Shown here: piece after piece, positions 32,030 through 59,689 of the stretch
Layout: the number at the start of each line of letters is the position of its first letter
Position numbering within the stretch: position 1 is the stretch's first letter
NCBI GenBank assembly: GCA_963726615.1
Contig: CAVSCX010000015.1
Coordinates: 13,822 to 77,821 of the forward strand
DNA from: an uncultured Actinomycetota bacterium
GTDB taxonomy: Bacteria; Actinomycetota; Actinomycetes; JACCUZ01
Direction of reading: 5' to 3'
DNA: 64,000 nucleotides
Program-made: the position numbers and the translations under genes
Notes under the pieces: generated by a model
Seen by the model: the letters and a program-made list of their open reading frames with translations, nothing else
Told to the model about the DNA's origin: nothing
Database searches by the model: none

Positions 32030-32030
32030 G

Positions 32031-34477: not shown

Positions 34478-35482
34478 TCAGGCGTGACTGCCGTCACGCC
34501 GGAACATGACGTCGGTCTCCCACCGGGTGAAGCCCAGGGCCGTGTAGACGGCGATCGCCGCGGCGTTGTCGGCGTCCACGTACAGCATCGCGTCGGGCAG
34601 GCCGAGGTGGCGCAGGTGACGGAGCCCCACCAGGGTCAGCGCCCGGCCGAGCCCGTTGCCGCGCTCGGTCGGGTCGACACCGACGACGTAGACCTCCCCG
34701 ATCGGCTCGTGGCCGTGACTCCCGGTCTGGCCCTCGTGGGCGTGCGGCTGGTCGAGCAAGGCGTGCGCCGGCCCCGCGCCACCGTGGACCTTCGTCCAGT
34801 GGAACCCGACCAGCCGCGTGCCGCGGTCGTCCGTGCGCTCGGCCAGGAAGAAGCCGGCCGGGTCGAACCAGGGCTCGCCGACCCGTCGGTGCAGGTCGTC
34901 GACGGTCCATGAGGCCTGCTCCGGGTGGCCGCGGAACGCCGCGGAGTTGAGGGCCACCCACGCGTCGTCGTCCGCCCCGGGGACGAACTCCCGCACGCTG
35001 ACCCCGGCGGGCAGGTCCGCGACCGGCAGGGCTGCGTACAGCGAGCGGCGCATCTGCCACAGCGCCCGGGACTGGACGAACCCGAGCGTTGCCGCGAGGG
35101 CGGCGGCGCCGGGGTGCCCGCCATGCGACCAGAGCCGCAGCCGCCCGTCCGGCGTCTCGTCCAGGGTGGCCCGGACGAGGGCCCGGCCGACGCCCCGGCC
35201 CCGGTGCGCCGGCGCCACGACGAGCTCGGCGCTGGCTCCCTGCACCTCGTCGGTGACGTCCAGGTGCGCGTATCCGGCCAGGTCGCCGGCGGCAACGCCG
35301 TCCTTGACCCAGGCGAGCACGTTCCGGACCGGCTCGTCCCCGCCGTAGCGCAGGTGCAGCATCACGTGCTCCGAGAGCGGCCGGACGCCGTCGGCCTCGG
35401 TGGCGGCCTCGACCAGGCCGCTCACCGCGCGGACCTCGGTCGGGTCCAGCGGGCCCACCACCTCGAGGCTCAGCACCGGCAC
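34478..35482 (-). CDS. mshD: mycothiol synthase MshD (tandem GNAT domains)
   Basis: Two acetyltransferase halves (…LVVAPAHRGRGVGRALV… and …GVDPTERGNGLGRALTLVGLRHL…). Length 334 aa. Gene neighbours match the M. tuberculosis Rv0819 locus (GlnR-like gene and thiX/cysA2/sseC2-like run). Confidence 0.85.
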   Translation of the reverse strand: MPVLSLEVVGPLDPTEVRAVSGLVEAATEADGVRPLSEHVMLHLRYGGDEPVRNVLAWVKDGVAAGDLAGYAHLDVTDEVQGASAELVVAPAHRGRGVGRALVRATLDETPDGRLRLWSHGGHPGAAALAATLGFVQSRALWQMRRSLYAALPVADLPAGVSVREFVPGADDDAWVALNSAAFRGHPEQASWTVDDLHRRVGEPWFDPAGFFLAERTDDRGTRLVGFHWTKVHGGAGPAHALLDQPHAHEGQTGSHGHEPIGEVYVVGVDPTERGNGLGRALTLVGLRHLRHLGLPDAMLYVDADNAAAIAVYTALGFTRWETDVMFRRDGSHA

Positions 35483-35599
35483 AGCCTAGGGAAGGGACGA
35501 ATGCGGCGACTTCGGGACCAGAGATGGCGAAGTTCCCCTGTCCGGGATGGTGCGTCTGGACTAGGTTCCTGTGATCCGATCCCCACCCCGAGGAGCCAC

Positions 35600-37375: not shown

Positions 37376-37392
37376 GGGACCGCCGCACGGCC

Positions 37393-37428
37393 GGACGCCC
37401 CCGGGAGCAGCTGCTCCCGGGGGCGTCC
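37393..37428. terminator. perfect 17-bp-arm palindrome between convergent genes (bidirectional terminator candidate)
   Basis: GGACGCCCCCGGGAGCAG|CTGCTCCCGGGGGCGTCC lies between the 5'-nucleotidase stop (37375) and the response-regulator stop (37510). No U-tract (common in high-GC actinobacteria). Confidence 0.55.
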
Positions 37429-37509
37429 GTCGTCCCACGCACCGGGGGGTCAGTCGTCCGTGTCGCCCAGGACGTACGCCGTGACCGCGCCGGCCGAAAC
37501 GGCCGGCCG

Positions 37510-38244
37510 TCAGCCGACGGGGACGGGGGACTTGGGGACCGGGATGTCGGCGCCGGCGTCCTGCGGCTCCTTCGGCAGCACGAAGCGGTAACCGACGTTG
37601 CGCACGGTCCCGATCAGCGTCTCGTGGTCGGAGCCGAGCTTCGCCCGGAGCCGGCGTACATGCACGTCCACCGTGCGGGTGCCGCCGTAGTAGTCGTAGC
37701 CCCAGACCTCCTGCAGCAGCTGGGCCCGGCTGAAGACGCGGCCGGGGTGCTGCGCGAGGAACTTGAGCAGCTCGAACTCCTTGTAGGTCAGGTCGAGCAC
37801 CCGGCCCTTGACCCTCGCGGTGTAGGTCGCCTCGTCGATGGTCACGTCGCCGCGCCGGATCTCGGTGAGGTCGTCCTCGCCGCCGTTGCGGCCGGCGAGC
37901 CTGCCGATCGCCAGTCGTAGCCGCGCCTCCACCTCGGCCGGGCCGGCGGTGTCGAGCAGGACGTCGTCGACACCCCAGTCGGCGGTGACGGCGGCGAGGC
38001 CGCCCTCGGTCGCGACGAGCAGGACAGGGCAGTCGACACCCGTGCTGCGCAGGACTCGGCACAGCGACCGGACGTGCGGCAGGTCCCGGCGCCCGTCGAT
38101 GAGCAGCGCGTCCGAGGGCGGCGCCTCCAGCAGCGCTGAGGCCTCGGCGGGGGCCACCCGGAGCGTGTGCGAGAGCAGGCCGAGCGCGGGCAGCACCTCG
38201 GTCGACGGCTGCAGCGTGTTCGTCAGCAGCAACAGCTGGCTCAT
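37510..38244 (-). CDS. glnR: OmpR-family winged-helix response regulator with atypical receiver (GlnR-like)
   Basis: C-terminal ...[53 protein letters not shown]... Receiver lacks a clear phospho-acceptor context. Adjacent to mshD as glnR (Rv0818) is in mycobacteria. Confidence 0.65.
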
Positions 38245-38384
38245 CTGTCCCCAATTCCTCGGGCGGGCGTCCAGTTCACCATGATGGTGTCACCAGGATC
38301 GGGTCCTGTCCGGTCGGCGAGAACGCCTTACGCAGGCGAAACATCACCGTCACACGGCGGCACGCACACGGGAGGGAGGCTCAG

Positions 38385-38633
38385 GTGGCCCAGGGGACGC
38401 TGCGGTACTGGGCCGCGGCCCGGGCGGCTGCGGGCGTCACCGAGGAGCCGTTCGAGGGCGTGACGCTCGGCGAGGTGCTGGACCGGGCGGTGGCCGCTCA
38501 CGGGCCTGAGCTGGCCCGGGTGCTCGGAGTCGCGAGCTTCCTCGTGGACGGCGTGCGCTCGGCCCGCGACAGCGCCCTCGCCGACGGCGTGACCGTCGAG
38601 GTGCTGCCTCCCTTCGCGGGCGGAAGCCGGTGA
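38385..38633 (+). CDS. MoaD/ThiS-family sulfur-carrier-like protein
   Basis: 82 aa ending ...VEVLPPFAGGSR (GG followed by 2 extra residues). Confidence 0.55.
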   Translation: MAQGTLRYWAAARAAAGVTEEPFEGVTLGEVLDRAVAAHGPELARVLGVASFLVDGVRSARDSALADGVTVEVLPPFAGGSR

Positions 38634-39363
38634 GTGCAGGCCTCGCTGCCGGCCTCGCCGTCCTGCTCGTCCTCGGAGCCGCCACCGACCCGGTCGTGCT
38701 CCTGGCCGCCGTGGCGCTGGCCCAGGTGCTCACGGCCGTGCCTGGTTCGCGGCGCTGGGCGTCGCGCGGATGCGCCGAGGGCCAGGTCCTGGTCGCGCGG
38801 CCGCTGTGGCCGCCGACATCACGGTGCTCCGGTCGGACGAGACGCGACCCCTGGCGCACGTCGGTCCGGTGCTCGCCGTGGCGCTGCTCGCGACGCTCGT
38901 GCTGCAGCTGGTCGCGCGCCGGGACGGGCGCGACGGGGCTGACCGGCTCGCTCACGGCCAGCGGGTCCGCCTCGTGCTGGCCGGTCTCGCCGCGGCCTGG
39001 TTGGCCCTGGACGTGCAGAGGACGGGGTCGGCCTGGTCCTCGTCGCGGCCGTGGCGGTAGCGGCGGCCCCCGCTGCGGACTGGGCCGTCGGACCGGGCCG
39101 CGGTCCGGCTGCCGGTCCGGCGGTGGGTCCCGGTGCTGGCCGGAGCCGCCCTCACCGTGGCCGCCGGTGCCGTGGTGGCGTCGCAGTCGGGTCTGGACCT
39201 TCCGGTGGCGCTGGCCGCCGGGGCCGTGGCGGCAGTCGCGGCGCGGGTGGCCGTCGTGCTTGCCCAGCGGGTGCCCACGGCCGACCCGGTGCTGCCGGCG
39301 GTGCTGCCGGCGCTGCTCGTGGCTCCGGCGACGTACGTCCTCGCCCGGGTGCTGCTCGGCTGA
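38630..39363 (+). pseudogene. Rv0817c-like membrane/exported protein with disrupted reading frame (in-frame TAG at 39058 and apparent frame changes)
   Basis: Hydrophobic segments appear in three different frames (38630 frame, 38770 frame, 39133 frame). The frame-1 ORF is broken by a single TAG. Region is strongly low-complexity. Confidence 0.3.
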
Positions 39364-39416
39364 CCGCCGGACCGACGCCGGGGAATCCGAGCGATCAGCC
39401 CGCAGTTGGTCCTGAC

Positions 39417-39842
39417 GTGACCGGACTGCTCGTCGTCGTCGTGACCCTGGCGGTCGCCTCGGCGGCCGGGCTGTGGATCCAGCGGTCGGGCCACCGGCTG
39501 GCCCGTCGCAGCCGCGCAGGCGTCGGCGCCGGTCCGGTGCTGGCCGCGAGCGACCTGGGCGCCGACCTCGGCGAGCGGGCCACCCTGGTGCAGTTCTCCT
39601 CCGCGTTCTGCCAGCCCTGCCGGGCCACCCGGCGGATCCTCGACGAGGTCAGCACCATGGTCGCGGGGGTGACCCACGTGGAGGTCGACGCCGAGAGCAA
39701 CCTGGACCTGGTCCGCCGGCTCGACGTCCGGCGCACGCCTACGGTGCTGGTCCTGGACTCGTCGGGCGCCGTGGTTCGCCGGGCCAGCGGGCAGCCCCGC
39801 AAGGCCGACGTGCTGGCCGCGCTGGGCGAGGCGGTCAGGTGA
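39417..39842 (+). CDS. thioredoxin-like protein with N-terminal TM anchor (ThiX/TlpA-like)
   Basis: VTGLLVVVVTLAVASAAGLW anchor then ...ATLVQFSSAFCQPCRATRRILDEV... (CxxC), ...LDVRRTPTVLVLDSSGAVV. Confidence 0.65.
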   Translation: MTGLLVVVVTLAVASAAGLWIQRSGHRLARRSRAGVGAGPVLAASDLGADLGERATLVQFSSAFCQPCRATRRILDEVSTMVAGVTHVEVDAESNLDLVRRLDVRRTPTVLVLDSSGAVVRRASGQPRKADVLAALGEAVR

Positions 39843-40019
39843 CCTGTCTCAGTGGGTGGAACACCTCGTGCCGAGGCGTGGACGGGGCTAGCATCGACGG
39901 CGTGAGCACGGAGCTGACCCGACGACGCGCAGTCGACCTGCTGCGCGTCGCGACTGCGCTCTGTCCCGCTTCCTGACACCAGACGAGACCCGTCCGTCCG
40001 CTTCCGTCAGGAGCACCCC

Positions 40020-40499
40020 ATGCCGTCCTCGGCAACCCCCGTCCTGGTCGACCCGCGCGGCCCCCGCGCCGGCGCCGCCCTCACCACCGTCGTCCTCGCC
40101 GTCGCGATCGCGACCGGCTGGTCGTGGCTGCTCGTCGGCCAGGCCGTCGTGTTCGCGCTCGGTGCCGCCGGCCGCTCGCCGTACGGCGTCCTGTACGCCC
40201 GGCTGGTCCGCCCGCGTCTGGGGGTGCCGGCCGAGCTCGAGGACAGCCGGCCGCTGCGCTTCGCCCAGGCCGTCGGCCTGGCGTTCAGCCTCGTCGCGCT
40301 GGCCGCCCTGGCGCTGCCCGGCGGGGCGGTGACCCTGGTCGCGACCGCGGCCGCGCTGGCGGCAGCCTTCCTCAACGCCGCGTTCGGCGTCTGCCTCGGG
40401 TGCGAGGCCTACCTGCTGCTCCGACGCAGCACGCCCATCGTGCGCACGGTCCCGAACCCGCGCGCCGCCATCCCCACCCGTTCGGAGGTCCCCGCATGA
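40020..40499 (+). CDS. DUF4395-family membrane protein (precedes rhodanese, as in the mycobacterial cysA2 locus)
   Basis: 4 predicted TM helices. ...AAFGVCLGCEAYLLL C-terminal motif. Stop overlaps next ATG (ATGA). Confidence 0.65.
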   Translation: MPSSATPVLVDPRGPRAGAALTTVVLAVAIATGWSWLLVGQAVVFALGAAGRSPYGVLYARLVRPRLGVPAELEDSRPLRFAQAVGLAFSLVALAALALPGGAVTLVATAAALAAAFLNAAFGVCLGCEAYLLLRRSTPIVRTVPNPRAAIPTRSEVPA

Positions 40500-41335
40500 G
40501 CCGCGACACCGCACTGGTCGACGCCGACTGGGTCGAGTCCAGGATCGACGACCCGAAGGTCGTCCTCGTCGAGGTCGACGAGGACACCGCCGCGTACGAC
40601 AAGAACCACATCCGGGGCGCCGCGCGCCTCGACTGGAAGAAGGACCTGCAGGACCCGGTCCGGCGCGACTTCGTGAGCAAGCAGCAGTTCGAGGCGCTGC
40701 TCTCGGCCAAGGGCATCGCCAACGACGACGTCGTCGTGCTCTACGGCGGCAACAACAACTGGTTCGCCGCCTACGCCTACTGGTACTTCAGGCTGTACGG
40801 CCACGGCGACGTCCGGCTGCTCGACGGCGGCCGCAAGAAGTGGGAGCTGGACTCCCGCGAGCTCGTCGACGAGGTCGTCGAGCGCCCCGCCACCACCTAC
40901 ACCGCGCAGGAGCAGGACCGGTCGATCCGCGCCTTCCGCGACGAGGTCGAGGCGGCCATCGGCCAGAAGAACCTCGTCGACGTCCGCAGCCCCGACGAGT
41001 TCTCCGGCAAGCTGCTCGCTCCGGCACACCTGCCGCAGGAGCAGTCGCAGCGACCCGGCCACATCCCGACGGCGCGCAACATCCCGTGGTCCCAGGCCGC
41101 CAACGACGACGGCACCTTCAAGAGCGACAGCGACCTCGCGACGCTGTACGGCGACAAGGGCGTCGACCTGGCCAAGGACACGATCGCCTACTGCCGCATC
41201 GGCGAGCGCTCCGCGCACACCTGGTTCGTCCTGCACGAGATCCTGGGCCAGCCGAACGTCAAGAACTACGACGGCTCGTGGACCGAGTGGGGCTCGCTCG
41301 TCGGGGTGCCGATCGAGCTCGGGGAGCAGCCCTGA
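40496..41335 (+). CDS. sseA: thiosulfate sulfurtransferase (tandem-rhodanese, SseA/CysA2-like)
   Basis: ...KNHIRGAARLDW... and active-site loop AYCRIGERSAHTWFVL. Two rhodanese domains. Confidence 0.9.
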   Translation: MSRDTALVDADWVESRIDDPKVVLVEVDEDTAAYDKNHIRGAARLDWKKDLQDPVRRDFVSKQQFEALLSAKGIANDDVVVLYGGNNNWFAAYAYWYFRLYGHGDVRLLDGGRKKWELDSRELVDEVVERPATTYTAQEQDRSIRAFRDEVEAAIGQKNLVDVRSPDEFSGKLLAPAHLPQEQSQRPGHIPTARNIPWSQAANDDGTFKSDSDLATLYGDKGVDLAKDTIAYCRIGERSAHTWFVLHEILGQPNVKNYDGSWTEWGSLVGVPIELGEQP

Positions 41336-41634
41336 TGTGCGGCGCGAAGGCCGGCGGCCCCTCCACCGAGGGTGTCGACCTCACCGACGAGTCGGTGGTG
41401 CAGGGCGTCGTCGTCCGTGACGGCTCGCCGGTCTCCGGCGCCTACGTGCGGCTGCTCGACGGCGGCGGCGAGTTCACCGCCGAGGTGCCGACCTCGGCGA
41501 CCGGCCAGTTCCGGTTCTTCGCCGCCCCGGGCACGTGGACGCTGCGGACCCTGGCGCCGAAGGCGGAGCCGGTCGACCGCACCGTGGTCGCCCAGCGCGG
41601 CGAGGTGGCCGAGGTCGAGGTGCTCATCGCCTGA
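41335..41634 (+). CDS. DUF1416 (SseC-like) protein
   Basis: TGATG overlap with rhodanese. MCGAKAGGP...QGVVVRDGSPVSGAYVRLLD...GQFRFFAAPGTWTLR. Confidence 0.75.
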   Translation: MCGAKAGGPSTEGVDLTDESVVQGVVVRDGSPVSGAYVRLLDGGGEFTAEVPTSATGQFRFFAAPGTWTLRTLAPKAEPVDRTVVAQRGEVAEVEVLIA

Positions 41635-41674
41635 CGTACTGAAGAACGTCGCGGTCCCCGCCGATGATGCAGGC

Positions 41675-42205
41675 ATGCGTTGTCGGCGGGGGCTCGTCCG
41701 TCTCGTGGTCTCGCTCGCTCTCGTGAGCTGCGCGGGGTCACCGGCGTCGTACGCCGTCGCGGGTGCGCCCACGCCACCGGGGCGGGCCTTCACCGCCCGG
41801 GTCGACCGCGTCGTCGACGGCGACACGTTCATCGCACTTCGGCGCGGCGAGCGGCTCCGGGTGCGCCTCATCGGCGTCGACTCCCCGGAGTCGGTCCGGC
41901 CCGGATCCCCGGTCGAGTGCTGGGGGCCGGAGTCCTCGGCCCGGTTGACCCGGCTGCTGCCGGTCGGGACCCGGGTGACCGGGGCGTACCAGGGCGGCGG
42001 GCGGCAGGACCAGTACGGACGCGACCTGTGGGACGTGTGGCTGCCCGACGGGCGGTTCCTCCAGGGCGTGCTGGTGCGTCGTGGTGCGGCGCGCGCCTAC
42101 CCCTACCGCCCGCAGGTCGCGCACGCGGCGTACCTCGAGAAGGTCGCGGCCCTGGCCCGTGACCGCGACCGCGGTCTCTGGGGGCATTGCCCCGGCCCTG
42201 CCTGA
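41675..42205 (+). CDS. thermonuclease (SNase/micrococcal-nuclease-like) lipoprotein
   Basis: Lipobox LVSCAG. ...RVVDGDTFIALRRGERLRVRLIGVDSPE...YGRDLWDVWLPDGRFLQGVLVRRGAARAY. Confidence 0.75.
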   Translation: MRCRRGLVRLVVSLALVSCAGSPASYAVAGAPTPPGRAFTARVDRVVDGDTFIALRRGERLRVRLIGVDSPESVRPGSPVECWGPESSARLTRLLPVGTRVTGAYQGGGRQDQYGRDLWDVWLPDGRFLQGVLVRRGAARAYPYRPQVAHAAYLEKVAALARDRDRGLWGHCPGPA

Positions 42206-42222
42206 CCGGCACGCTGGCGGGG

Positions 42223-42824
42223 TGACCGCCGTACCGCCCTGGTCCGGCACGACGGTGCTGACCAGCAGGCGGCTGCTGCTGCGCACCTGGCGGCGCGACG
42301 ACCTGCCGGTGTTCGCCGCGATGAACGCCGACCCGGCCGTGGTCGAGTTCCTCGGCGGGGCACCGCTGCCGCCCGAGGAGTCCGACGCGATCGCGGCGCA
42401 CGCCGACCGGCTCTGGGCGGCCGAGGCTCTTGGCCTGCTCGCCGTGGAACGCACCGACGACGGGACCTTCGTCGGATTCTGCGGGCTGCACCGGCTGCTG
42501 GACTGGTACCCCGACGACATCGAGATCGCCTGGCGGCTCGCCCGGCAGCACTGGGGCCACGGCTACGCCACCGAGGCGGCCGCGGCCTGGCTCGACTACG
42601 GCTTCGGGGTCCTCGGGCTCGACCGGGTCATCTCCACCACCGACCGCGACCCGCCCAACCTGCGCAGCATCGCCGTCATGCGCCGCCTCGGCATGGTCTG
42701 GGACCACGACGCCGAGCTGGTGGAGGACGGCGTGAGCTTCCCCGCCGTGGTCCACAGCATCACCGCCGAGCAGTGGGGGGAGCTGGCCGGATCCGGCCCC
42801 GGCCCCGACCCGGAGCGGGGCTAG
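42223..42824 (+). CDS. GNAT-family N-acetyltransferase (RimJ/RimL-like)
   Basis: GTG start. ...LTSRRLLLRTWRRDDL...IEIAWRLARQHWGHGYATEAAAAWLDYGF... Confidence 0.7.
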
Positions 42825-42865
42825 CGTGGGCGAAGGCGTCGACGTCGACGTCGGAAGGGCGGGCC

Positions 42866-43666
42866 ATGGAGGTGCTGCTGCTCGGGGCCAGCGGGTCGAT
42901 CGGCCGTGGCGCGTCCGCGGAGCTGCTGGCTCGGGGGCACGCCGTGCGGGCCGCCTCCCGGACCCCGCAGGCGTCTGTCGCCGGGAGCGGGCCGCGGTGG
43001 TTCCCGGTCGACCTGACCACCGGTGCGGGACTGCTCGACGCGGTCCGCGGCGTCGACGCCGTCGTCGACCTCGCGAACGTCCGCAGCCCCAGGCCCTCCG
43101 CGCTCGACGCCGTCCTGGTCGACGGGACCCGACGGGTCCTGCGCGCCTGCCAGGAGCTGGGAGGTGTCCGGTACGTGGGCATCTCGATCGTGGGCATCGA
43201 CGAGATCCCCTACGTCTACTACCGGGCGAAGCTGAGGCAGGAGCGGGTGATCGAGAGCGGTGGAGCCCCCTGGTCGTTGCTGCGCTCGACCCAGGTGCAC
43301 GACTTCGTCGACCAGATCCTGTCCCTCTCGGGGCGCGCGCCCGCGCTGGTCCTCCCCACCGACGTGCGGCTGCAGCCGATCGCCGTCGCCGACGTGGCGC
43401 GGTCGCTCGCAGATGCGGCCGAGCAGCCGGCGGCAGGCCGGCTGCCGGAGGTGGGGGGTCCGCGGATCCAGACCCTGGGCGAGCTCGCCCAGGAGTGGCT
43501 ACGCGCTCGCGGGCAGTCCAAGCGGGTCCTTCGCGTGCCGTTGCCCGGCCGAGTGGGAACGGCATTGGCCCGGGGCCGGCTGTGCACGCCCCAGCACGCC
43601 GTCGACGGCGCCGACTTCGCGCAGTGGCTGACGGGCACGAGGGGCGGGCCGGGGACACCGTCGTGA
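42866..43666 (+). CDS. NAD(P)H-binding NmrA/SDR-like oxidoreductase
   Basis: MEVLLLGASGSIGRGASAELLARGHAVRAASR Rossmann GxxGxxG. Confidence 0.75.
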   Translation: MEVLLLGASGSIGRGASAELLARGHAVRAASRTPQASVAGSGPRWFPVDLTTGAGLLDAVRGVDAVVDLANVRSPRPSALDAVLVDGTRRVLRACQELGGVRYVGISIVGIDEIPYVYYRAKLRQERVIESGGAPWSLLRSTQVHDFVDQILSLSGRAPALVLPTDVRLQPIAVADVARSLADAAEQPAAGRLPEVGGPRIQTLGELAQEWLRARGQSKRVLRVPLPGRVGTALARGRLCTPQHAVDGADFAQWLTGTRGGPGTPS

Positions 43667-43900
43667 CGAGGATGCTGCGACGGGACGTCCGTCGACCGGG
43701 CAGCTGACGTCACGGCGCCGCGCTGACGGCAACGAGGCGGGACCGGCCCCGCGTAGACTCGGTGGGTGCTGTCCACCGTGGTCGTCGTCGTGCTCGTGTC
43801 GACGTTCGCGATCGTCGCGGGGGTCGCCGGCTGGGTCGTGCGCCGGCTCTGGACCGCCACCGGCGACGGCCGCCCGACGTCCAGGGAGAGCTGACCGGCG

Positions 43901-44392
43901 GTGGAGATCCGCGCGGACATGCCGCTCCAGCTGGTCCCGGTGTCGTGGCTGCTCGGCACCTGGCGGGGTGTGGGCGTCGGCGGCTACCCGACCGTGCCGG
44001 AGTTCCGGTTCAGCCAGGAGGTCACCTTCACCGAGCTGCCCGGCAAGCCGTTCGTCCACCACCTGAGCCGAAGCTGGCTGCTCGACGACGACGGCACTGA
44101 GGTGCGCCCGCTCGCCCAGGAGACCGGGTACTGGCGCCCCGAGGCCGACGGCAGCCTGGAGGTCCTGCTCGCGCACCCGACCGGGTTCGTCGAGATCTGG
44201 GTGGGCACCGCCGACGGGGCGAAGGTCGAGCTGAGCACCGACGCCGTCGCCCGGACGGCGACCGCCAAGGACTACACGGCCGGCCACCGGTTGTACGGGC
44301 TGGTCAAGGGCGACCTGCTGTGGGCCTATGACATGGCGGCCATGGGCCAGCCGCTGCAGCCGCACCTGTCCGCCACCCTGACGAGGGTCTGA
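43901..44392 (+). CDS. FABP/nitrobindin-like beta-barrel protein (DUF1794, UPF0678)
   Basis: ...LQLVPVSWLLGTWRGVGVGGYPTV...GYWRPEADGSLEVLLAHPTGFVEIWVG... Confidence 0.7.
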   Translation: MEIRADMPLQLVPVSWLLGTWRGVGVGGYPTVPEFRFSQEVTFTELPGKPFVHHLSRSWLLDDDGTEVRPLAQETGYWRPEADGSLEVLLAHPTGFVEIWVGTADGAKVELSTDAVARTATAKDYTAGHRLYGLVKGDLLWAYDMAAMGQPLQPHLSATLTRV

Positions 44393-44393
44393 C

Positions 44394-44810
44394 GTGGCCG
44401 CCCAGGACCTGCCCGCGACCCTGCGCGCCAAGGGGTACCGGATCACGCCGCAGCGTCAGCTCGTGCTCGACGCCGTCACCGCCCTCGAGCACGGCACACC
44501 GGACGAGATCTGCGCGCAGGTGCAGCGCACCGCGACCGGCGTCAACCTCTCGACGGTCTACCGCACCCTCGAGCTGCTCGAGGAGCTCGGCCTGGTCACC
44601 CACACCCATCTCGGCCACGGCGCGCCGACCTACCACGCGGCCGGCGACATCGACCACCTGCACCTGGTCTGCCGCGACTGCGGCGAGATCATCGAGACCG
44701 ACGTCGCCCTCGCGGACTCGCTGGTGGGAATGTTGGCCGACCAGCATGGCTTCCAGACAGACGTGGCTCACTTCGCGATCTACGGCCGCTGTCGGGGGTG
44801 CGCGACATGA
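44394..44810 (+). CDS. Fur-family transcriptional regulator (Zur/FurB-like)
   Basis: GYRITPQRQLVLDAV...HTHLGHGAPTYH...HLHLVCRDCGEIIE...GRCRGC with metal-binding HxH and CxxC motifs. Confidence 0.85.
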   Translation: MAAQDLPATLRAKGYRITPQRQLVLDAVTALEHGTPDEICAQVQRTATGVNLSTVYRTLELLEELGLVTHTHLGHGAPTYHAAGDIDHLHLVCRDCGEIIETDVALADSLVGMLADQHGFQTDVAHFAIYGRCRGCAT

Positions 44811-45736
44811 CGAGCCCGCTTCTCTCCCGGCCCGGTGCCGTCGAGGCCGACCCGCCCGACGCCGGTGTGGCGGCCCACTACGGCGACCCGTTCCGCGAGC
44901 AGCGCGCGCTGGTCGACGGTGAGGCGTCGGTCGACCTCTCGCACCGGCCGGTCGTCCGCGTCGCCGGCCCGGACCGCCTGACGTGGCTGCACTCCCTCAC
45001 CTCCCAGCACCTGGAGGCGCTCACGCCGGGCACGGCGACCGAGGCCCTGCTGCTCTCGCCGCACGGTCACGTCGAGCACGACCTGCACCTCGTCGACGAC
45101 GGGTCGGCGGTCTGGCTGCACGTCGAGCCGGGCACCGCCGAGGCACTGGTGGGCTGGCTGGACTCGATGCGCTTCTGGTCCCAGGTGGAGGTCGAGAACC
45201 TCTGCGCGTCGTACGCCGTCGTACACCGCCCGACCGCGGTCGAGGGCGTCCCGAGCCGGCTCGTCCCGCACGGTGTCGAGTCGTTCGTCGACCGGGCCGA
45301 CCTGGAGGCCGCCCTGGCGGGGCCGGTCGCCGGAGTGTGGGCGCTCGAGGCGCTGCGGGTCGCCGACGGCCGGCCGCGGTTCGGCCTGGAGACCGACCAT
45401 CGCACGATCCCGCACGAGGTCGGCTGGATCGAGACGGCGGTACACCTGGACAAGGGCTGCTACCGGGGCCAGGAGACCGTCGCACGGGTGGCCAACCTCG
45501 GCCGGCCGCCGCGCCGGCTGGTGCTGCTGCACCTGGACGGCAGCGAGTCGGTGCTGCCCGGACACGGTGACCCGGTGCTGCTCGGGGACCGCCAGGTCGG
45601 GACTGTCACCTCCTCGGCCCGCCACTACGAGCTCGGCCCGGTCGCGCTGGCCGTGGTCAAGCGGTCCACGCCGGCCGACGCACCGCTCGTCGCCGGCGGG
45701 GTGGCCGCCGCCCAGGAGGTCCTCGTCCCGGCCTGA
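44807..45736 (+). CDS. ygfZ: YgfZ/CAF17-family folate-binding Fe-S cluster repair protein (GcvT-like fold)
   Basis: ATGA overlap with fur. ...AHYGDPFREQRALVDG...LDKGCYRGQETVARV conserved K-G-C-Y-x-GQE motif. Confidence 0.8.
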   Translation: MTSPLLSRPGAVEADPPDAGVAAHYGDPFREQRALVDGEASVDLSHRPVVRVAGPDRLTWLHSLTSQHLEALTPGTATEALLLSPHGHVEHDLHLVDDGSAVWLHVEPGTAEALVGWLDSMRFWSQVEVENLCASYAVVHRPTAVEGVPSRLVPHGVESFVDRADLEAALAGPVAGVWALEALRVADGRPRFGLETDHRTIPHEVGWIETAVHLDKGCYRGQETVARVANLGRPPRRLVLLHLDGSESVLPGHGDPVLLGDRQVGTVTSSARHYELGPVALAVVKRSTPADAPLVAGGVAAAQEVLVPA

Positions 45737-45758: not shown

Positions 45759-46193
45759 TCAGACCTCGAGGAGCAGGGTCACCGGGCCGTCGTTGACGAG
45801 GGACAGCTGCATGTCGGCCCCGAAGCGGCCGGTCTCGACCCTCGCTCCGCGCTCGCGCAGCACCGTGACGAGGTGTGCCACCAGCGGTTCGGCGACGGGG
45901 CCGGGGGCCGCGGCGTTCCAGGTCGGGCGCCGGCCCTTGCGGGTGTCGCCGTACAGCGTGAACTGGCTGACCACGAGCAGCGGGGCGCCTACCTCGGCCG
46001 CGGACCGCTCGTCGTCGAGGATGCGCAGCTCGTGCACCTTCACGGCGAGCCGTGCGGCCTTCTCTTCGGTGTCGTCGTGGGTCACGCCGACGAGGACGCA
46101 GAGCCCCTGCCCGGAGCCGTCCCCGATCCGGCTGACGACCTCGCCGCCGACGGTGACGAAGGCCTCGCGGACCCGTTGGACCAGAGCGCGCAT
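45759..46193 (-). CDS. dtd: D-aminoacyl-tRNA deacylase
   Basis: MRALVQRV...[29 protein letters not shown]...[20 protein letters not shown]. 144 aa from ATG at 46193. Confidence 0.85.
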
Positions 46194-46575
46194 CAGGCCA
46201 TGATCGCCGACCGCGCCAGGGAGGTCGTCAGCCGCGCCCGAACAGACCCTTGCGCTTCTTCTTGTCGGCACCGGGGGGTGGCGCCGACCTCGGAGCGGCG
46301 GGGCCGGAGGACTCCTCCGGACCGTCGTCCAGGCCGAAGCCGAGGCTGGAGAGCTCGCGCAGCAGCATCGCGGTGTCCGCCTGGTCGCGGGCAACCATCG
46401 GCTCGGGGCGGTCGTCGACCTCCTTGGCCTCGGGCTCCGGCTTCGCCGTCTCGACGGGCTTCTCCGGCACCACGGCGGGCGTCGGCTCCACCGGTGCGTT
46501 GCGGGTGAGCTCGGTCAGCATGTTCGCCGCCGCCCGCGGGCCGGCGTTGTCCCGGTGGACGGCGGCTGGGGCCCG

Positions 46576-46940
46576 CTCGGCCTCCGCTGCGTCGGCGGCG
46601 GCCTGCTCGGCGGCGACCCGCTCGGCCTCCGCTGCGTCGGCGGCGGCCTGCTCGGCGGCGACCCGCTCGGCCTCCGCTGCGTCGGCGGCGGCCTGCTCGG
46701 CGGCGACCCGCTCGGCCTCCGCTGCGTCGGCGGCGGCCTGCTCGGCGGCGACCCGCTCGGCCTCCGCTGCTCGGCGGCGGCCTGCTCGGCGGCGGCCTGC
46801 TCGGCGGCGGCCTGCTCGGCGGCGGCCTGGTCGGCGGCGACCCGCTCGGCCTCGGCGGCGGCCTGGTCGGCGGCGACCCGCTCGGCTTCGGCGGCGGCCT
46901 GCTCGGCGGCGACCCGCTCGGCCGCGGCGGCCTCCGCCTC
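46576..46940. repeat. 45-bp tandem repeat array (4 perfect copies 46576-46755, then degenerate copies)
   Basis: Unit ctcggcctccgctgcgtcggcggcggcctgctcggcggcgacccg x4. The 5th copy lacks one G. Confidence 0.8.
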
Positions 46941-47199
46941 AGCAGCCTGCTCCGCCGCGATCCGCTCGGCCTCCGCCGCCGCGATCGCCTCGGCCGCCTC
47001 GGCCGCGAGCCGGTCGGCCTCCTCGCGCTCACGTCGTGCGGCCTCGCGCCGGGCGATCCGCTCGGCCTCCTTGCGGGCCGCGGTCTCCTCGGCCTTGCGG
47101 GAACGGCGCGCAGCCTCCTCGGCCAGCTCCCGCTCGGCCTGCTCGCGGGCAGCCCGAAGCTCGGCCTCGCGGGCCGCCTCCTCGGCGGCGCGCTCGGCG

Positions 47200-47772
47200 G
47201 ACCAGGCGGCATGGTCGGCCCAGGCAGCCTCTTCGGCATCGGCCCGCTGGGCCGTCAGCCAGGCCCCGTGCTCGGCCCAGGCGGTCTCCTCGGCGGCGGC
47301 CCGCTGCGCCGCCAGCCAGGCGGTGTGATCGGCCCACGCGGTCTCCTCCGCTGCCGCGCGCTCGGCGGCAAGGGCGGCCCGGGCGTCGAGCCACGCGGTG
47401 TGGTCGGCCCAGGCGGACTCTTCGGCGGCGGCGCGCTCGCCCTCGAGCCAGGCAGCGTGGTCGGCCCAGGCGGTCTCCTCGGCGGCGGCGCGCTCGCCCT
47501 CGAGCCAGGCAGCGTGGTCGGACCAGGCGGTCTCCTCGGCGCCGGCCCGCTGGGCCGCCAGCCAGGTGGCGTGCTCGGCCCAGGCGGTCTCCTCGGCGTC
47601 GGCCCGCTGGGCCGCCAGCCAGGTCGCGTGCTCGGCCCAGGCGGTCTGCTCGGCAGCGGCCCGCTCGCCCTCGAGCCAGGCAGTGTGGTCGGCCCAGGCG
47701 GTCTCCTCGGCGCCGGCCCGCTGGGCCGCCAGCCAGGTGGCGTGGTCGGCCCAGGCGGTCTCCTCGGCCTCG
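47200..47772. repeat. 57-bp tandem repeat array, about 10 copies, two alternating subtypes
   Basis: Unit ggcccaggcggtctcctcggcggcggcgcgctcgccctcgagccaggcagcgtggtc with variants. Encodes the 19-aa W-containing protein repeats. Confidence 0.8.
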
Positions 47773-49348
47773 AGCCGCTCGGCGGCCTCGCGCTCGCGAC
47801 GGTCGCGGTCCTCCGCCTCCCGTGCCTCGGCCGCAGCCGCCTCGGCGGCGGCCTTCTCCTCCTCCTTGGCCAGGCGGCGGGCCTCGGCGCGCTCGGCGCG
47901 CGATGCCGCTTCCTTCTGTGCGAGCGCCTCCAGCTCCCGGTGCAGGATCTCCGCCTCTTCCAGGCGCTTCCTCTCGGAGGAGACCCGGACCCGCTCTGCC
48001 TCCCGGGCGGCGTCCTCCTCGGCCAGCCGGGCTGCCTCACCCGCCGCCACCCGCTCTGCTGCGCGACGACCGGTCTCCTCGGCCGCAGCCTGCTCGACGG
48101 CCAACATCTCGGCGGCCTGACGTCGGGCCTTCTCGGCCTTCTCGGCCTGCTCGGCCGCTGCCTGCTCGGCCGCTGCCTGCTCGGCCGCTGCGGTGTCCTG
48201 CTCCGCGGTGTCCTCGAGGTCGGCCACGGCGACGACCGGCAGCACCAGCTCGGGCCCGGCCGCGTCGACCGGCTCCAGCTCGTCCAGCGTGTCCAGCTCG
48301 AGCACCAGCTCCTCGACCGTCGCCTCGTCCGCCAGGGCGGTGGCAGCGCCGCCGTCCTGTGCGGCCGGGACTGCAGCGTCCCTGTCGTCCTCGCCGTCCT
48401 CGGCGCCGGGGCCGTCGACGCCGACGAGCCCGGCTTCGACAAGCCGCATGACGACCTGGCCGGCCTCGAACAGCGTGAACCCGCACTCGACAGCCAGCTC
48501 GGCGACGTCCCGGGTCCCGTCGACCTTGCACAGGAGGGCCCACTCGTTCGGGCCCAGAGCGACCTCGTCGGAGGGAGACGCGGCGTCCAGCATCGGTACC
48601 GCGGCAGGCCCCCCGGTGGCGGCGACGATGGTCTCCCACGTGGTGGCCCGCTCGCGCAGGTCGTCCAGCAGCACCGCGACGGGCGCGGGCGGGGCGACGT
48701 CCTGGCGGGTCTTCTTGTTCTTGCGGAACTTCCAGGCGGCGACCGGCCAGCCCAGCAGGTCGGTGAGTCCGTCCTTGAGCTGCTCGACGACGAACTCCTC
48801 GACCACGGAGACCTCGACGTAGCCCAGGTGCACGAGCAGCTCGCCCAGCCGCCAGCCCTGCAGCTCGGTGCGCTGGATCTCCAGCGCCTCGGCGAGTGCC
48901 TCAGGGGTCAGGGCGCCGCGGGACATCAGCCGGACACCGAGCAGGACCCGGCGGCCGGGGACGCTGACGGCGTAGACCTGACCGTCGCGCAGGTAGACCT
49001 CGGCCTCGTCGCCCTCCTGGTCGCGGACGAGGAGGCAGCCGGTGGCCCGCGAGTCGGCCAGGTCGCGCAGCACGGACTCGACGGTGTGGGTGAGGAGGGC
49101 ACCCTCAGGCACGAGCTGCCTCCCTTCCCCGAGTTGTGGACGTGCCGGGCCGGACCACGCGTCGCTCCGCTCTCGCGGCGGTCGCCCGGTCCCTGATCGC
49201 ATCGGCAGGACCGGCCGGAGTGTTGAGTGCGGTTCGCGCACCAATGTGCGGTACAACCGGCTCCCGCCGACCCTCTGCGCGCGCGAGGCCCGGCGCGGTT
49301 CGCCTGAGTCCGCTCCGGCGCCGCCTCCGGACGTGACACGATGCTCCG

Positions 49349-50221
49349 GTGGCACCGTCGCCTGCACCTCCCCGCACGCTGATCACGGTCGCGCCCACCG
49401 GGGCCGAGACCGCGAAGTCCGACGCGCCTGCCCTGCCCGTCACCCTCGACGAGCTGGTCTCCGCCGCCAAGGCCTGCGAGGCGGCCGGCGCCGCCATGGT
49501 GCACGTGCACATCCGCGACGACGAGGGCCGCCCGACCCTCGACCTGGGCCGCCTCCGGGCGACCGTCCAGGCCCTGCGCGAGTCCACGTCGCTCGTCGTC
49601 CAGCTCAGCACCGGCGGTGCGGTGACCGACCCGCTGGACGCGCGGCTTCGGGTCCTCGAGGCCGAGCCCGACTCGTGCTCGCTGACCTGCGGCACCACGA
49701 ACTTCGGCGACGACGTCTTCCTCAACCCGTGGCCGTTCATGGCCGACCTCTTCCAGCGCAGCCAGGCGGCCGAGGTGGTCCCCGAGTTCGAGCTGTTCGA
49801 CCTCGGGCACGTCGCCTCGCTGCACCGCCTGCTCGACACCTACGGGGCGCCGTACGGCGGGCAGGTGCACTGCGACCTGGTGATGGGCGTGCCCGGTGGG
49901 ATGCCGGGCACGGCGGCGGCCCTCGTGGCCGCGGTCGCAGCACTGCCGGCCGGGTGCTCGTGGAGCGCCACCGGCATCGGCCGGACCTCGCTGGCCGTGG
50001 CCCTCGCGGCGCTGTCGGCCGGCGGGCACCTGCGGGTCGGCATGGAGGACACCTTGACCTTCGCCCGGGGCCGCCCGGTCACCGGCAACGAGGAGCTCGT
50101 CGCGCGAGCGGCCCAGCTCGCGGAGCTGGCCCAGCGACCGCCCATGAGCACCGACGAGGCGCGCGCCCTGCTGCGCGTCAAGGACCGAACGACACCCGAG
50201 AGCACGGGGGAGCCCCGATGA
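49349..50221 (+). CDS. 3-keto-5-aminohexanoate cleavage enzyme family protein (BKACE/DUF849)
   Basis: ...[14 protein letters not shown]...[16 protein letters not shown]...FELFDLGHV... characteristic of BKACE TIM-barrel enzymes. Confidence 0.8.
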
Positions 50222-50769
50222 CGACCAGCCACGAGCCCTACCCCAACGGTCGGCGCCGGATCGACAAGGTGCTCGCCGAGGACTTCGCCGCAGATGTCGG
50301 CGGTCTCGACCTCGACGAGCTCCGGTCCCGCCGTCGGGAGGCCGAGCAGGAGGAGGCGGACCTCTCCTACGTCCGCAGGATGCTGCAGGGCCGGATGGAC
50401 ATCCTGCGCGCCGAGCTGGCCCGCCGGGCCGGGGGCGGCGACAAGATCGTCGAGCACCTCTCCGCGGTGCTGGCCGACTCCGCCCGCAGCGACCACGGAC
50501 TCGGCAGGTTCCTGCGGGTCGAGCCGTCCCGGGTCGACGAGCACCGCCGGCTGGTGGAACAGGTCATCGCCGACGTCGGCGTCTCCGACGTCGAGGGCCG
50601 CTCCGACGACGACCTGCGCGCGGCCCTCGGGCGCCTCGAGAAGTTCGAGCACGGCGTCTCCGAGGACCGGCGTGCCGTCCAGTCCGTGATGGACGCCCTC
50701 ACGGCCGAGGTCGCGGCGCGCTACAAGAGCGGCAGTGCGACGGTGGACGACCTGCTCGCGGAGCGCTAG
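50218..50769 (+). CDS. RsiG-like c-di-GMP-binding anti-sigma factor homologue
   Basis: ATGA overlap with the BKACE gene. 183 aa. Two exact E(X)3S(X)2R(X)3Q(X)3D motifs: residues 46-61 EADLSYVRRMLQGRMD and 144-159 EHGVSEDRRAVQSVMD, on predicted helices. Confidence 0.7.
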   Translation: MTTSHEPYPNGRRRIDKVLAEDFAADVGGLDLDELRSRRREAEQEEADLSYVRRMLQGRMDILRAELARRAGGGDKIVEHLSAVLADSARSDHGLGRFLRVEPSRVDEHRRLVEQVIADVGVSDVEGRSDDDLRAALGRLEKFEHGVSEDRRAVQSVMDALTAEVAARYKSGSATVDDLLAER

Positions 50770-50851
50770 ACCACCGTTCGCGACCCGCCGGTTGCTCGCC
50801 TTCCAGCGGGGGCCCCGACTGCTGTCGGGAACGCCCTTCTAGGGTCACGGG

Positions 50852-51823
50852 GTGGTCGACACCCCGCACGCTCCTCAGACCGTCGGTCCCGTCGTCGTCG
50901 CCGAGGTCGTGCGCTCGGGCTTCGTCGAGGGCCACCACCACGGCAGCGTCCTGGCGCTGGCCGCCGACGGCAGCCGGGTGCTGGCTCTCGGTGCGACCGA
51001 CGTCCCGGTCTTCCCGCGGTCCTCGAACAAGCCGCTGCAAGCCGTCGGCATGCTCGAAGCCGGGCTCGACCTCGACGGTGAGCTGTTGGCCCTGGCCTGC
51101 GCGAGCCACTCCGGCGAGCCGTTCCACGTCGAGGGTGTACGGCGGGTGCTCAGCGCCGCGGGGCTCGACGAGTCGGCGTTGCAGACACCGGCGGACTGGC
51201 CGGTGGACGACGCCGAGAAGCTCGCCCTGGCCGCCGCCGGAGGGCGGCCCGCCCGCGTCCTGATGAACTGCTCCGGCAAGCACGCCGCGATGCTGGCCAC
51301 CTGCGTCGCGAACGGCTGGCCGACGGACACCTACCTCGACGGCGACCACCCGCTGCAGGCCGGGCTCGCCCGGACCGTCGAGCGGCTGGCCGGCGAGCCG
51401 GTCACCGCGACCGGTGTCGACGGGTGCGGCGCCCCGCTGTTCGCGCTGACTCTCGCCGGGCTGGCTCGGGCGTTCGCCGCCGTCGCGACCGCGGCCCCTG
51501 GCACGCCGGGGAACCGGGTCGCCGCGGCGGTCCGGGGCCATCCGACGTGGCTCGGAGGCACCCGCCGCGACGTCACGGCGCTGGTCGCCGGCGTCCCCGG
51601 GCTTGTCGCCAAGGACGGCGCCGAGGGCGTCTACGCCGCCGCACTCCCCGACGGTCGGGTCGTCGCGCTCAAGGTTGACGACGGCGGCCAGCGTGCGCGA
51701 CCGCCCGTGATGGCGGCGGCGCTGCGCGCGCTCGGTGTGGACGCGACCGTTCTCGCCGAGCAGGCCGAGACCCCGCTGCTCGGCGGTGGCCGAACGGTCG
51801 GGTCGGTCCGGGCGACGTTCTGA
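50852..51823 (+). CDS. asparaginase-family protein (PF06089-type)
   Basis: ...PVFPRSSNKPLQAVGMLEAGL...NCSGKHAAMLATC... conserved motifs. Confidence 0.8.
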   Translation: MVDTPHAPQTVGPVVVAEVVRSGFVEGHHHGSVLALAADGSRVLALGATDVPVFPRSSNKPLQAVGMLEAGLDLDGELLALACASHSGEPFHVEGVRRVLSAAGLDESALQTPADWPVDDAEKLALAAAGGRPARVLMNCSGKHAAMLATCVANGWPTDTYLDGDHPLQAGLARTVERLAGEPVTATGVDGCGAPLFALTLAGLARAFAAVATAAPGTPGNRVAAAVRGHPTWLGGTRRDVTALVAGVPGLVAKDGAEGVYAAALPDGRVVALKVDDGGQRARPPVMAAALRALGVDATVLAEQAETPLLGGGRTVGSVRATF

Positions 51824-58130: not shown

Positions 58131-59363
58131 CTACGCCAGCTGGTCGCGACGGCGTGTCAGGTAAGCGGTTTCCGCGGTGTTGCCGGCCAGCTCGATGGCT
58201 CTGTCGTACGCCGCGCGTGACTCCTGACTGCAGCCGAGCCGGCGCAGCAGGTCGGCGCGGGTCGCATGGTAGGCGTGGTAGCCGGCCAAGGGGTCCTGGA
58301 GACGGTCGACAGCCGCCAGCGCCACCTCCGGGCCGTCGAGCTCGGCGACCGCGACGGCCCGGTTGAGGGCGATGACCGGCGAGGGGTCGAGGCGGACGAG
58401 CCGGTCGTAGAGCGCGACGACCTGCGACCAGTCGGTGTCGCGGACGTCACGGGCGGAGGTGTGCACGGCGTTGATCGCCGCGAGGATCTGGTAGGGCCCC
58501 GGCGCCGCCCCGGCGGCCAGGCGCTCACGCACCAGCCGATGGCCCTCGGCGACCATCGCCTGGTCCCAGGCCCCCCGGTCCTGCTCGTCGAGGGTGACCA
58601 GCTCGCCGGTCGGCGAGACCCGGGCCGTGCGGCGAGCCTCGGTGAGGAGCATCAGCGCCAGCAGCCCGGCCACCTCACCGTCCCGGGGCATGAGGGCGCG
58701 GAGCATGCGAGTGAGCCGGATCGCCTCGGTCGTCAGGTCGTGCCGTACCGGATCGGTGTCGGGGCCGGTCGCCAGGTATCCCTCGTTGAACACGAGGAAC
58801 AGGGCGGCGAGGACGCCGGAGACACGTGCCGGGAGATCCTCCGGGGCCGGCAGCCGCCACGGGATCCGAGCCGTCCTGATCTTGGCCTTCGCGCGGGTGA
58901 TCCGCTGACCGACGGTGGTCTCCTGCACCAGGAATGCGCGGGCGATCTCTGGCAGGGTCAGTCCGCCGACCATGCGTAGCGTGAGCGCCACGCGGGCCTC
59001 CATCGAGAGCGCCGGGTGGCAGCAGGTGAAGACGAGCCGGAGCCGCTCGTCGTCGATGGCGCCGACAGGCTCGGGCAGGTCGTCGTCGTACAACATCCGA
59101 GCCTCCCTCTGCTTGTCGTCGCGCTTGCTCTCGCGCCGGATCCTGTCGATGGCCTTGCGGTTGGCGGTGGTGGTCAGCCAGGCGCCGGGGTTGGGAGGTA
59201 CGCCGTCGGCCGGCCACCGCTCGACCGCGGTGGCGAACGCCTCGGCAGCCGCCTCCTCGGCGATGTCGAGGTCACCGAAACGCCTGGCCAGGGAGGCGAC
59301 CACCCGAGCCCACTCCTCGTGGTGGGCCTGGGTGATCGCCTCCCTGGCGTCGGTCACGCTCAC
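58131..59363 (-). CDS. ECF-type RNA polymerase sigma factor with extended C-terminal domain (YciI-associated ECF group)
   Basis: Sigma-2 region ...EDLVQETTVG... and sigma-4 ...LTLPEIARAFLVQETTVGQRITRAKAKIR... The C-terminal extension of about 200 aa is TPR-like. Start overlaps the yciI stop (ATGA). Confidence 0.8.
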   Translation of the reverse strand: MSVTDAREAITQAHHEEWARVVASLARRFGDLDIAEEAAAEAFATAVERWPADGVPPNPGAWLTTTANRKAIDRIRRESKRDDKQREARMLYDDDLPEPVGAIDDERLRLVFTCCHPALSMEARVALTLRMVGGLTLPEIARAFLVQETTVGQRITRAKAKIRTARIPWRLPAPEDLPARVSGVLAALFLVFNEGYLATGPDTDPVRHDLTTEAIRLTRMLRALMPRDGEVAGLLALMLLTEARRTARVSPTGELVTLDEQDRGAWDQAMVAEGHRLVRERLAAGAAPGPYQILAAINAVHTSARDVRDTDWSQVVALYDRLVRLDPSPVIALNRAVAVAELDGPEVALAAVDRLQDPLAGYHAYHATRADLLRRLGCSQESRAAYDRAIELAGNTAETAYLTRRRDQLA

Positions 59364-59689
59364 TCGCCGAGGAACGGCCGCACCTCGACCTTCCGGTTGC
59401 AGGACTTCGACCCGTCGGCGGCGAGCTCGAGCGCCGCGTCGAGGTCCGGGGCCTCGATGATCCAGAAACCGGCGAGGTACTCCTTCGACTCCAGGAAGGG
59501 GCCGTCGGTGAACACCAGCTCGTCACCACGGTTGTCGATGACGGTGGCCGGGTCGGGCGACCCGAGACCGCCCGCGAAGACCCAGTGACCGTCGGCCCGG
59601 AGCCGGTCGTTGAACGCGTCGACGTCGGCCTCCTCGGTCGGGGTGGCCAAGCCGGTGCCGTCGTCGATCACGGACAACAAGTACTGCAT
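59360..59689 (-). CDS. YciI-like (DGPF) domain protein
   Basis: MQYLLSVIDDG...VFAGGLGSPDPATV...GFWIIEAPDLDAALELA. Confidence 0.8.
   Translation of the reverse strand: MQYLLSVIDDGTGLATPTEEADVDAFNDRLRADGHWVFAGGLGSPDPATVIDNRGDELVFTDGPFLESKEYLAGFWIIEAPDLDAALELAADGSKSCNRKVEVRPFLGE

Follow-up and report, generated by a model that had tools for sequence, protein, structure and literature searches.

Introduction

RsiG of Streptomyces venezuelae (AmfC, vnz19430; structures 6PFJ and 6PFV) is an anti-sigma factor in which paired helices, each carrying the signature E(X)3S(X)2R(X)3Q(X)3D, bind a dimer of cyclic di-GMP (c-di-GMP) and thereby sequester the sigma factor WhiG. Homologues are well described outside this genus: 135 have been found across Actinobacteria, 130 of them with the twin motif (PMC8325347), and an RsiG homologue is always accompanied by a WhiG homologue (PMC8325347, PMC12871210). 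The partner sigma factors belong to the WhiG2 clade, whose promoters follow the consensus T(A/C)AA-N16-GCCGATAA (PMC12871210). In S. venezuelae, rsiG lies ~1.5 Mbp away from whiG (PMC7005675), so an RsiG gene with no sigma gene beside it is to be expected.

Here we describe a relative of this system in a 64,000-nucleotide stretch of DNA from an uncultured Actinomycetota bacterium (contig CAVSCX010000015.1, positions 13,822 to 77,821), referred to below as the window. A reading of the sequence alone had noted that a 183-aa product encoded at 50218..50769 on the plus strand carries two intact motifs of the RsiG type and had proposed a c-di-GMP effector with an unusual metabolic partner gene, a member of the BKACE family. 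We conclude that this gene is very probably a Sporichthyaceae-like orthologue of rsiG (amfC) which forms the second cistron after BKACE and whose product acts on a WhiG2-clade sigma factor. Two features that the sequence-only reading had singled out lose their interest against the published record. The absence of a neighbouring sigma gene is shared with S. venezuelae rsiG itself, and the non-Streptomyces context is no novelty, since twin-motif RsiG beyond Streptomyces was published in 2021 and its pairing with WhiG2 has since been analysed (PMC8325347, PMC12871210).

The 183-aa protein is a twin-motif RsiG orthologue

Both motifs of the 183-aa protein, EADLSYVRRMLQGRMD at residues 46-61 (50353..50400, +) and EHGVSEDRRAVQSVMD at residues 144-159 (50647..50694, +), fit E(X)3S(X)2R(X)3Q(X)3D exactly. 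A search of the whole window in all six frames with the slightly wider pattern E...S..R...[QH]...D returned these two matches and no others. The similarity to RsiG extends over nearly the whole protein. The Pfam RsiG family PF22802 matched it in two stretches with E=1.9e-36 and 124 bits (cut-off 27), and the comparison with characterised RsiG that had been suggested at the outset gave 45% identity to the S. venezuelae protein, with the chain 6pfj_T (deposited as AmfC) matching residues 9-181 at E=1e-38. No NCBIfam model matched the protein, and the name therefore rests on Pfam and the Protein Data Bank (PDB).

A structure predicted with AlphaFold2 (AF2) from 29 homologues as input, with a mean pLDDT (per-residue confidence) of 78.4 and a pTM (predicted TM-score) of 0.71, contains two long helices at residues 32-70 and 130-171 bearing one motif each, together with a low-confidence loop at residues 87-99. 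When this model was compared with the PDB by Foldseek, the three best matches were the RsiG chains 6pfv_T, 6pfv_E and 6pfj_T, all taken from complexes of RsiG with WhiG and c-di-GMP, with TM-scores of 0.65-0.78 and a probability of 1.00; these were the only significant ones, the fourth match having E=0.27. The model thus predicts the fold of RsiG, an antiparallel coiled-coil with a connecting loop. We considered whether the two motifs might have arisen by chance in a helical protein that has nothing to do with RsiG, as the shortness of the motif would allow. The Pfam assignment, the full-length homology to a solved RsiG, the Foldseek result and the composition of the protein, for which ~0.0009 matches to the motif pattern would be expected, led us to reject this explanation, whose probability we regard as negligible.

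The two motif helices are identical to each other at 16 of 39 positions, which agrees with the internal duplication described for the family (PMC8325347). The window as a whole has a G+C content of 73%, and the rsiG open reading frame (ORF) has a G+C fraction of 0.95 at third (GC3) and 0.44 at second (GC2) codon positions; frame-specific GC3 of this kind indicates that 49349..50221 (+) and 50218..50769 (+) are both real genes. RsiG homologues are abundant, with 4,188 clusters at 90% identity retrieved at E<=0.001, and the protein encoded here, although a clear twin-motif RsiG orthologue, is in itself an ordinary member of the family.

Residues predicted to contact c-di-GMP and the sigma factor

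We next compared the protein residue by residue with S. venezuelae RsiG, using the list of sigma-4- and c-di-GMP-contacting residues given in PMC7005675. One constant offset of 18 brings both motifs into the S. venezuelae numbering, motif 1 aligning to residues 64-79 (E64, S68, R71, Q75 and D79) and motif 2 to residues 162-177. All ten motif residues (10/10) are kept, and the spacing between the motifs, 98 residues, equals that of S. venezuelae RsiG. The surface that contacts sigma-4 is likewise conserved: R54, R57, R58, Y187, L197 and L198 are identical and I183 is replaced by V, the equivalents in the window protein being R36, R39, R40, V165, Y169, L179 and L180.

Motif 1 is degenerate in some relatives. 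In three Nanopelagicales-like loci (L036, L037 and L039) motif 1 has H in place of Q and S in place of the final D; in three others (L028, L030 and L033) its first E is replaced by D; and in L011 G stands in place of the motif R.

Position of rsiG in the chromosome

To place the gene we assembled 80 loci from species-representative genomes, 45 from outside Streptomyces (RsiG identity from 96% to ~50%) and 35 from Streptomyces, including S. venezuelae ATCC 10712, and searched them by tblastn with the proteins encoded around rsiG in the window. Two genes served as anchors, a ygfZ-like GCV_T gene (44798..45736, +) and the D-Tyr-tRNA deacylase gene dtd (45759..46193, -), both identified by Pfam. 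The order ygfZ-like, dtd, rsiG was found in 34/35 Streptomyces loci, S. venezuelae (L078) among them; the remaining one, L056, has dtd and no ygfZ-like match. An L-asparaginase II family gene, at 50852..51823 (+) in the window (PF06089, E=1.4e-108), follows rsiG in most related loci. In the non-Streptomyces loci two further genes sit between dtd (-) and rsiG, namely a gene for a PATAN-domain protein (-) and the BKACE gene (+), and neither is present at rsiG in any of the 35 Streptomyces loci. The common ygfZ-like/dtd/rsiG order makes the window gene the positional orthologue of Streptomyces rsiG. Its identity as RsiG, and its predicted role as a c-di-GMP effector of the RsiG type, as first proposed, and as an anti-sigma factor, thus draw on full-length homology, predicted fold, contact residues and positional orthology, which is far more than the motifs provide.

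The closest relatives are metagenome-assembled genomes of uncultured Actinomycetota, some labelled Sporichthyaceae. An identical 183-aa protein is encoded on the 1,073,178-bp ENA contig ERZ25039476:contig_5952, which is nearly, not exactly, identical to the window, and when RsiG was searched for with a profile of divergent sequences, the best 120 matches were nearly all metagenomic. Frankiales-type loci (L043, L082 and L084) have the PATAN gene directly beside rsiG and no BKACE gene. One of these contigs also carries an SsgA-family gene a few kb downstream of rsiG (L084:10343-10609), which suggests that the organism sporulates.

Further upstream, the region 28679..45736 contains PhoU-like and PitA genes, pstBACS, an mshD-like GNAT gene, a 5'-nucleotidase gene and a GlnR-type regulator gene, followed in our inventory by rhodanese and DUF1416 genes, a Fur-family gene and the ygfZ-like gene. 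A similar gene order surrounds amfC/rsiG in the core chromosome of Streptomyces, and this fits an old, vertically inherited locus.

A conserved, predicted WhiG-type promoter faces the divergent PATAN gene

The divergent neighbour of the BKACE-rsiG pair, conserved as such beside rsiG, is a gene at 46515..49112 (-) that encodes an N-terminal PATAN domain (DUF4388/PatA_N; PF14332, E=1.6e-12) followed by long coiled-coil repeats. We scanned the window for WhiG-type promoters, defined by a -35 element T(A/C)AA, a 16-nt spacer and a -10 element GCCGATAA with invariant CGA, at <=200 bp from a start codon. A single exact match fell between genes: (C)TCAA-N16-GCCGATGC at 49199..49227 (-), which lies ~87 nt upstream of the PATAN start and reads into that gene. 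A site of this sigma-28/WhiG2 type occurs at the equivalent place in 38/45 non-Streptomyces loci and additionally in L082/L083 and L084. When 18 diverse loci were aligned, the only invariant columns were CT-AACA and TGCCGA-G, the spacers being variable. The motif is also rare elsewhere: 926 kb of loci, searched on both strands, contained 46 matches, 38 of them at the PATAN site and 8 at other places. None was found near rsiG in the Streptomyces loci. Conservation of a site with invariant -35 and -10 elements argues strongly, on comparative grounds, for a WhiG-type sigma factor operating in the non-Streptomyces genomes, and we predict from it that the PATAN/coiled-coil gene is a direct target of this sigma factor.

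A second WhiG-like motif, inside BKACE at 49722..49749 (+), was considered as an internal promoter for rsiG; it is not conserved in the relatives and was treated as a chance occurrence. In the Nanopelagicales-like loci, no promoter of the WhiG type precedes the PATAN gene. Together with their degenerate motif 1, this may mark a switch that is decaying or has been rewired.

In the window the PATAN frame is broken. Within a tract of 45-nt tandem repeats (46515..46980) it slips into a Pro-rich frame that ends at 46515, and comparison with positions 1-2895 of the near-identical ENA contig L081, in which the gene is a single intact ORF of 968 aa, identified 46228..46521 (-) as the orphaned C-terminal part of the same gene. 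Misassembly of the repeats, or else variation between strains, is the likely cause of the frameshift.

Cyanobacterial PATAN proteins influence cell polarity, differentiation and the motor of type IV pili (bioRxiv 10.1101/2021.06.11.447907; PMC12448109). We found no link between PATAN/DUF4388 and WhiG in the WhiG papers that we consulted or by a text search of the literature for DUF4388 and PATAN. In Streptomyces, the known WhiG regulon is limited to whiH, whiI and a single dispensable gene for a membrane protein. The conserved predicted promoter on the PATAN gene is in our view the most useful lead from this locus; it offers a concrete candidate for a conserved member of the WhiG regulon outside Streptomyces.

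A predicted promoter element shared by Streptomyces and non-Streptomyces rsiG loci

On the other side of the intergenic region, an extended -10-like element, GTGACACGATGC, is located at 49333..49344 (+), 6 nt before the GTG start codon of BKACE. Alignment of the PATAN-BKACE intergenic regions gave the consensus GTG(A/G)CAC(G/C)ATGC, a form of the extended -10 (TG-n-CACGAT). The element was found 6-7 nt from the start codon in 33 of the loci L001-L035, and variants of it in L036-L044 and L084. In the Frankiales-type locus L084, which has no BKACE, it abuts rsiG itself, and the corresponding element (GAGTGGCACCATGC...) stands upstream of rsiG in 35/35 Streptomyces loci (L046-L080, at ~5780-5895). 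The position of the element suggests that the BKACE-rsiG mRNA is probably leaderless. Its occurrence upstream of rsiG in Streptomyces and directly at rsiG in L084 further suggests a single orthologous rsiG promoter, with BKACE lying between this promoter and rsiG in the clade of the window. The shared element thus ties the Streptomyces and non-Streptomyces loci together.

An Rfam scan returned only a tRNA, far from the rsiG locus, and no BldD-box-like site was evident in the intergenic region on inspection by eye only. The window contains one further match to the -10-like element, GGTGACACCATC at 38283..38292 (-), ~48 nt upstream of the GlnR-type regulator gene (37510..38244, -). With ~2 matches expected in 128 kb, this one may be due to chance.

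BKACE and rsiG form a lineage-specific operon

The first gene of the transcription unit (49349..50221, +) encodes a Kce-like, 290-aa member of the BKACE family (DUF849; PF05853, E=4.1e-90, 302 bits). Its closest structural relative is Kce (PDB 2y7d), matched over the full length at E=1.6e-56; 3chv, 3fa5 and other TIM-barrel relatives also match. Alignment with Kce (vHvHir/ihLHir, pEfEl/pEvEv and gmED/gfED) showed that the HxH, Glu and G-x-E-D positions, which have metal-binding and catalytic roles in Kce, are kept. The NCBIfam equivalog model for Kce, NF052387, scored 272 bits, below its 382-bit cut-off, and no kam, kdd or kal-type lysine-fermentation neighbours were found among the genes of the window. 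On this sequence evidence the product belongs to the BKACE family and falls short of Kce proper.

At the junction of the two genes (50206..50221, +) the rsiG ATG overlaps the BKACE TGA by 4 nt, in the ATGA (50218-50221) that had been noted from the start, with a Shine-Dalgarno-like GGGGGAG (50206-50212) five bases upstream of the ATG. BKACE stands immediately 5' of rsiG in 43/45 non-Streptomyces loci and in 0/35 Streptomyces loci. The 4-nt overlap was found in 23 of the 43 BKACE-bearing loci; 18 others have gaps of 13-186 nt and 2 an apparently disrupted BKACE, with spacings of up to 745 nt.

The pairing that the sequence-only reading had picked out is therefore real and conserved. Its further proposal, that BKACE is a metabolic partner of RsiG, fared less well. 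Such a partnership would mean that the activity of a beta-keto acid/amino acid enzyme, or a signal acting on its expression, is tied to the c-di-GMP/WhiG switch, and that development or motility responds to metabolic state. The two genes stay side by side while RsiG identity falls from 96% to ~50%, often with overlapping reading frames, BKACE and rsiG share one conserved promoter element, and the enzyme is apparently catalytically intact, as judged from its sequence. The adjacency is, however, unspecific, because ygfZ, dtd, PATAN, BKACE, rsiG, asparaginase II and further genes are all collinear. In 20 loci the two genes are separated by gaps or apparent disruptions, rsiG occurs with no BKACE in the Frankiales-type loci and throughout Streptomyces, the window has no lysine-fermentation or related pathway genes nearby, and the literature that we searched reports no link between BKACE and RsiG. 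We consider a functional partnership unlikely. With the whole neighbourhood collinear, and rsiG free of BKACE in other lineages, we read the pairing as an operon arrangement and not as evidence of a partnership: BKACE-rsiG is most simply a real, conserved, lineage-specific operon, and a mechanistic tie to c-di-GMP signalling lacks support.

A model for the switch

By homology with S. venezuelae RsiG, the antiparallel helices 32-70 and 130-171, with one motif each, would clamp a partly intercalated c-di-GMP dimer. At high c-di-GMP, RsiG loaded in this way would sequester a WhiG2-clade sigma factor of the sigma-28 family encoded elsewhere in the genome, binding it through the flexible loop 87-99 and the conserved N- and C-terminal arginine, tyrosine and leucine residues. 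A fall in c-di-GMP would free the sigma factor to transcribe its targets, the neighbouring PATAN gene presumably among them. RsiG itself would be made from a leaderless BKACE-rsiG message, with its translation coupled to that of the upstream gene in the window and in roughly half of the related loci. On this model, transcription would begin at the GTG of BKACE (49349) and continue into rsiG, and the PATAN transcript would begin near 49192 (-).

Several observations weigh against this model. No sigma-28/WhiG-type gene is present in the 64-kb window, as the sequence-only reading had also found, and the partner sigma factor is therefore inferred. The loop that contacts c-di-GMP in S. venezuelae (D105/106, S108, H110, S112 and R115) has only D87 and R97 in register here; S108, H110 and S112 have no residue-for-residue equivalents, an S91-x-H93 being offset by one, and the other positions differ. 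A simple scan for sigma-70 promoters and intrinsic terminators found nothing in 48900..51000. Finally, some of the relatives do not share the 4-nt overlap.

The first two of these observations could also be accommodated if the RsiG fold and c-di-GMP binding had been kept while the output had changed, to another sigma factor or to a non-sigma partner such as the PATAN protein; outside Streptomyces, no other neighbour of rsiG is as widely conserved as the PATAN gene. We think this very unlikely, since the residues that contact sigma-4 are conserved, the adjacent WhiG-type promoter indicates that a WhiG-type sigma factor is active in these genomes, and co-occurrence and interaction of RsiG and WhiG2 have been demonstrated in distant families (PMC8325347, PMC12871210). 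Orthology to RsiG with a WhiG2-clade partner is the reading that we prefer.

A bolder extension of this reading is possible, and we offer it tentatively, as having perhaps a modest chance of being right. In actinomycetes other than Streptomyces, the rsiG locus might be a compact regulatory module in which a leaderless, BKACE-headed operon makes the c-di-GMP-armed anti-sigma factor and the divergent PATAN gene is a conserved direct output of the released WhiG. If the PATAN protein acted on polarity or type IV pili, as its cyanobacterial kin do, the RsiG-WhiG switch would have a conserved effector that had so far escaped notice; if the expression or activity of BKACE tuned the dosage of RsiG, metabolism would feed straight into a sigma checkpoint controlled by c-di-GMP.

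Other genes of the window

A PAS-GGDEF-EAL enzyme is encoded at 1..1611, as had been noticed at first; the gene is real, though encoded on the minus strand and cut short at its EAL end by the edge of the window. The only sigma-like gene of the window (58131..59363, -) encodes an extracytoplasmic function (ECF)-type sigma factor with a C-terminal DUF6596 extension, unrelated to WhiG; it shares the stretch 58131..59689 (-) with a YCII-family gene, to which its translation is coupled. Two tandem polyphosphate kinase 2 (PPK2) genes with a 4-nt overlap (18899..20694, +) lie downstream of a cell-envelope cluster of glycosyltransferase, PMT and phosphoesterase genes (7006..18347). At 10061..12583 (+) and 15580..17112 (+) lie genes for two large proteins of 840 and 510 aa, predicted to be secreted or in the membrane, that have no Pfam match at E<=1e-5.

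Comparison with known systems

As a protein, the RsiG orthologue adds one more uncultured, Sporichthyaceae-like soil actinomycete lineage to a well-described family and changes little. What is new is its setting: the operon, conserved among relatives, that rsiG forms with the gene for a metabolic enzyme, and the predicted WhiG-type promoter of the divergent neighbour.

The upstream gene product has its best structural relative in Kce of Cloacimonas acidaminovorans (2Y7D), with which it shares the HxH, Glu and E-D positions; it differs in scoring below the Kce equivalog cut-off and in having no lysine-fermentation genes nearby. The divergent neighbour has the N-terminal PATAN/DUF4388 domain in common with cyanobacterial PatA and PixG. 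Unlike these, it is actinobacterial, has long Ala/Glu-rich coiled-coil repeats in place of a receiver domain, and has a predicted WhiG-dependent promoter.

Within the RsiG family, the single-motif protein of Rubrobacter radiotolerans (7LQ2-7LQ4) resembles the window protein in motif and helix (E=1.2e-07, residues 25-86). That protein has one motif and dimerises, whereas the window protein represents the derived, monomeric twin-motif form. The twin-motif proteins of Geodermatophilaceae, Pseudonocardiaceae and other families (PMC8325347, PMC12871210) are closer, being likewise non-Streptomyces, and regulation by c-di-GMP and action on a WhiG2-type sigma factor are expected for the window protein too. 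The lineage of the window, known from uncultured Sporichthyaceae-like metagenome-assembled genomes, is unnamed in these surveys, and the main texts of both make no mention of a BKACE operon or a PATAN target.

The closest described system is S. venezuelae RsiG. The window protein shares with it full-length homology (45-48% identity), two equally spaced c-di-GMP motifs of the same pattern, a predicted antiparallel coiled-coil with a flexible loop, and conserved sigma-4-contacting residues; the genes share their position after ygfZ-like and dtd, the upstream -10-like element, and the lack of linkage to a sigma gene. The window protein differs in being ~20 residues shorter at the N-terminus and in keeping the c-di-GMP-contacting loop residues only in part. 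A clear lineage-specific difference concerns the genes around it: the window gene is the second cistron of a BKACE-first operon with a PATAN gene alongside, and the Streptomyces locus has neither.

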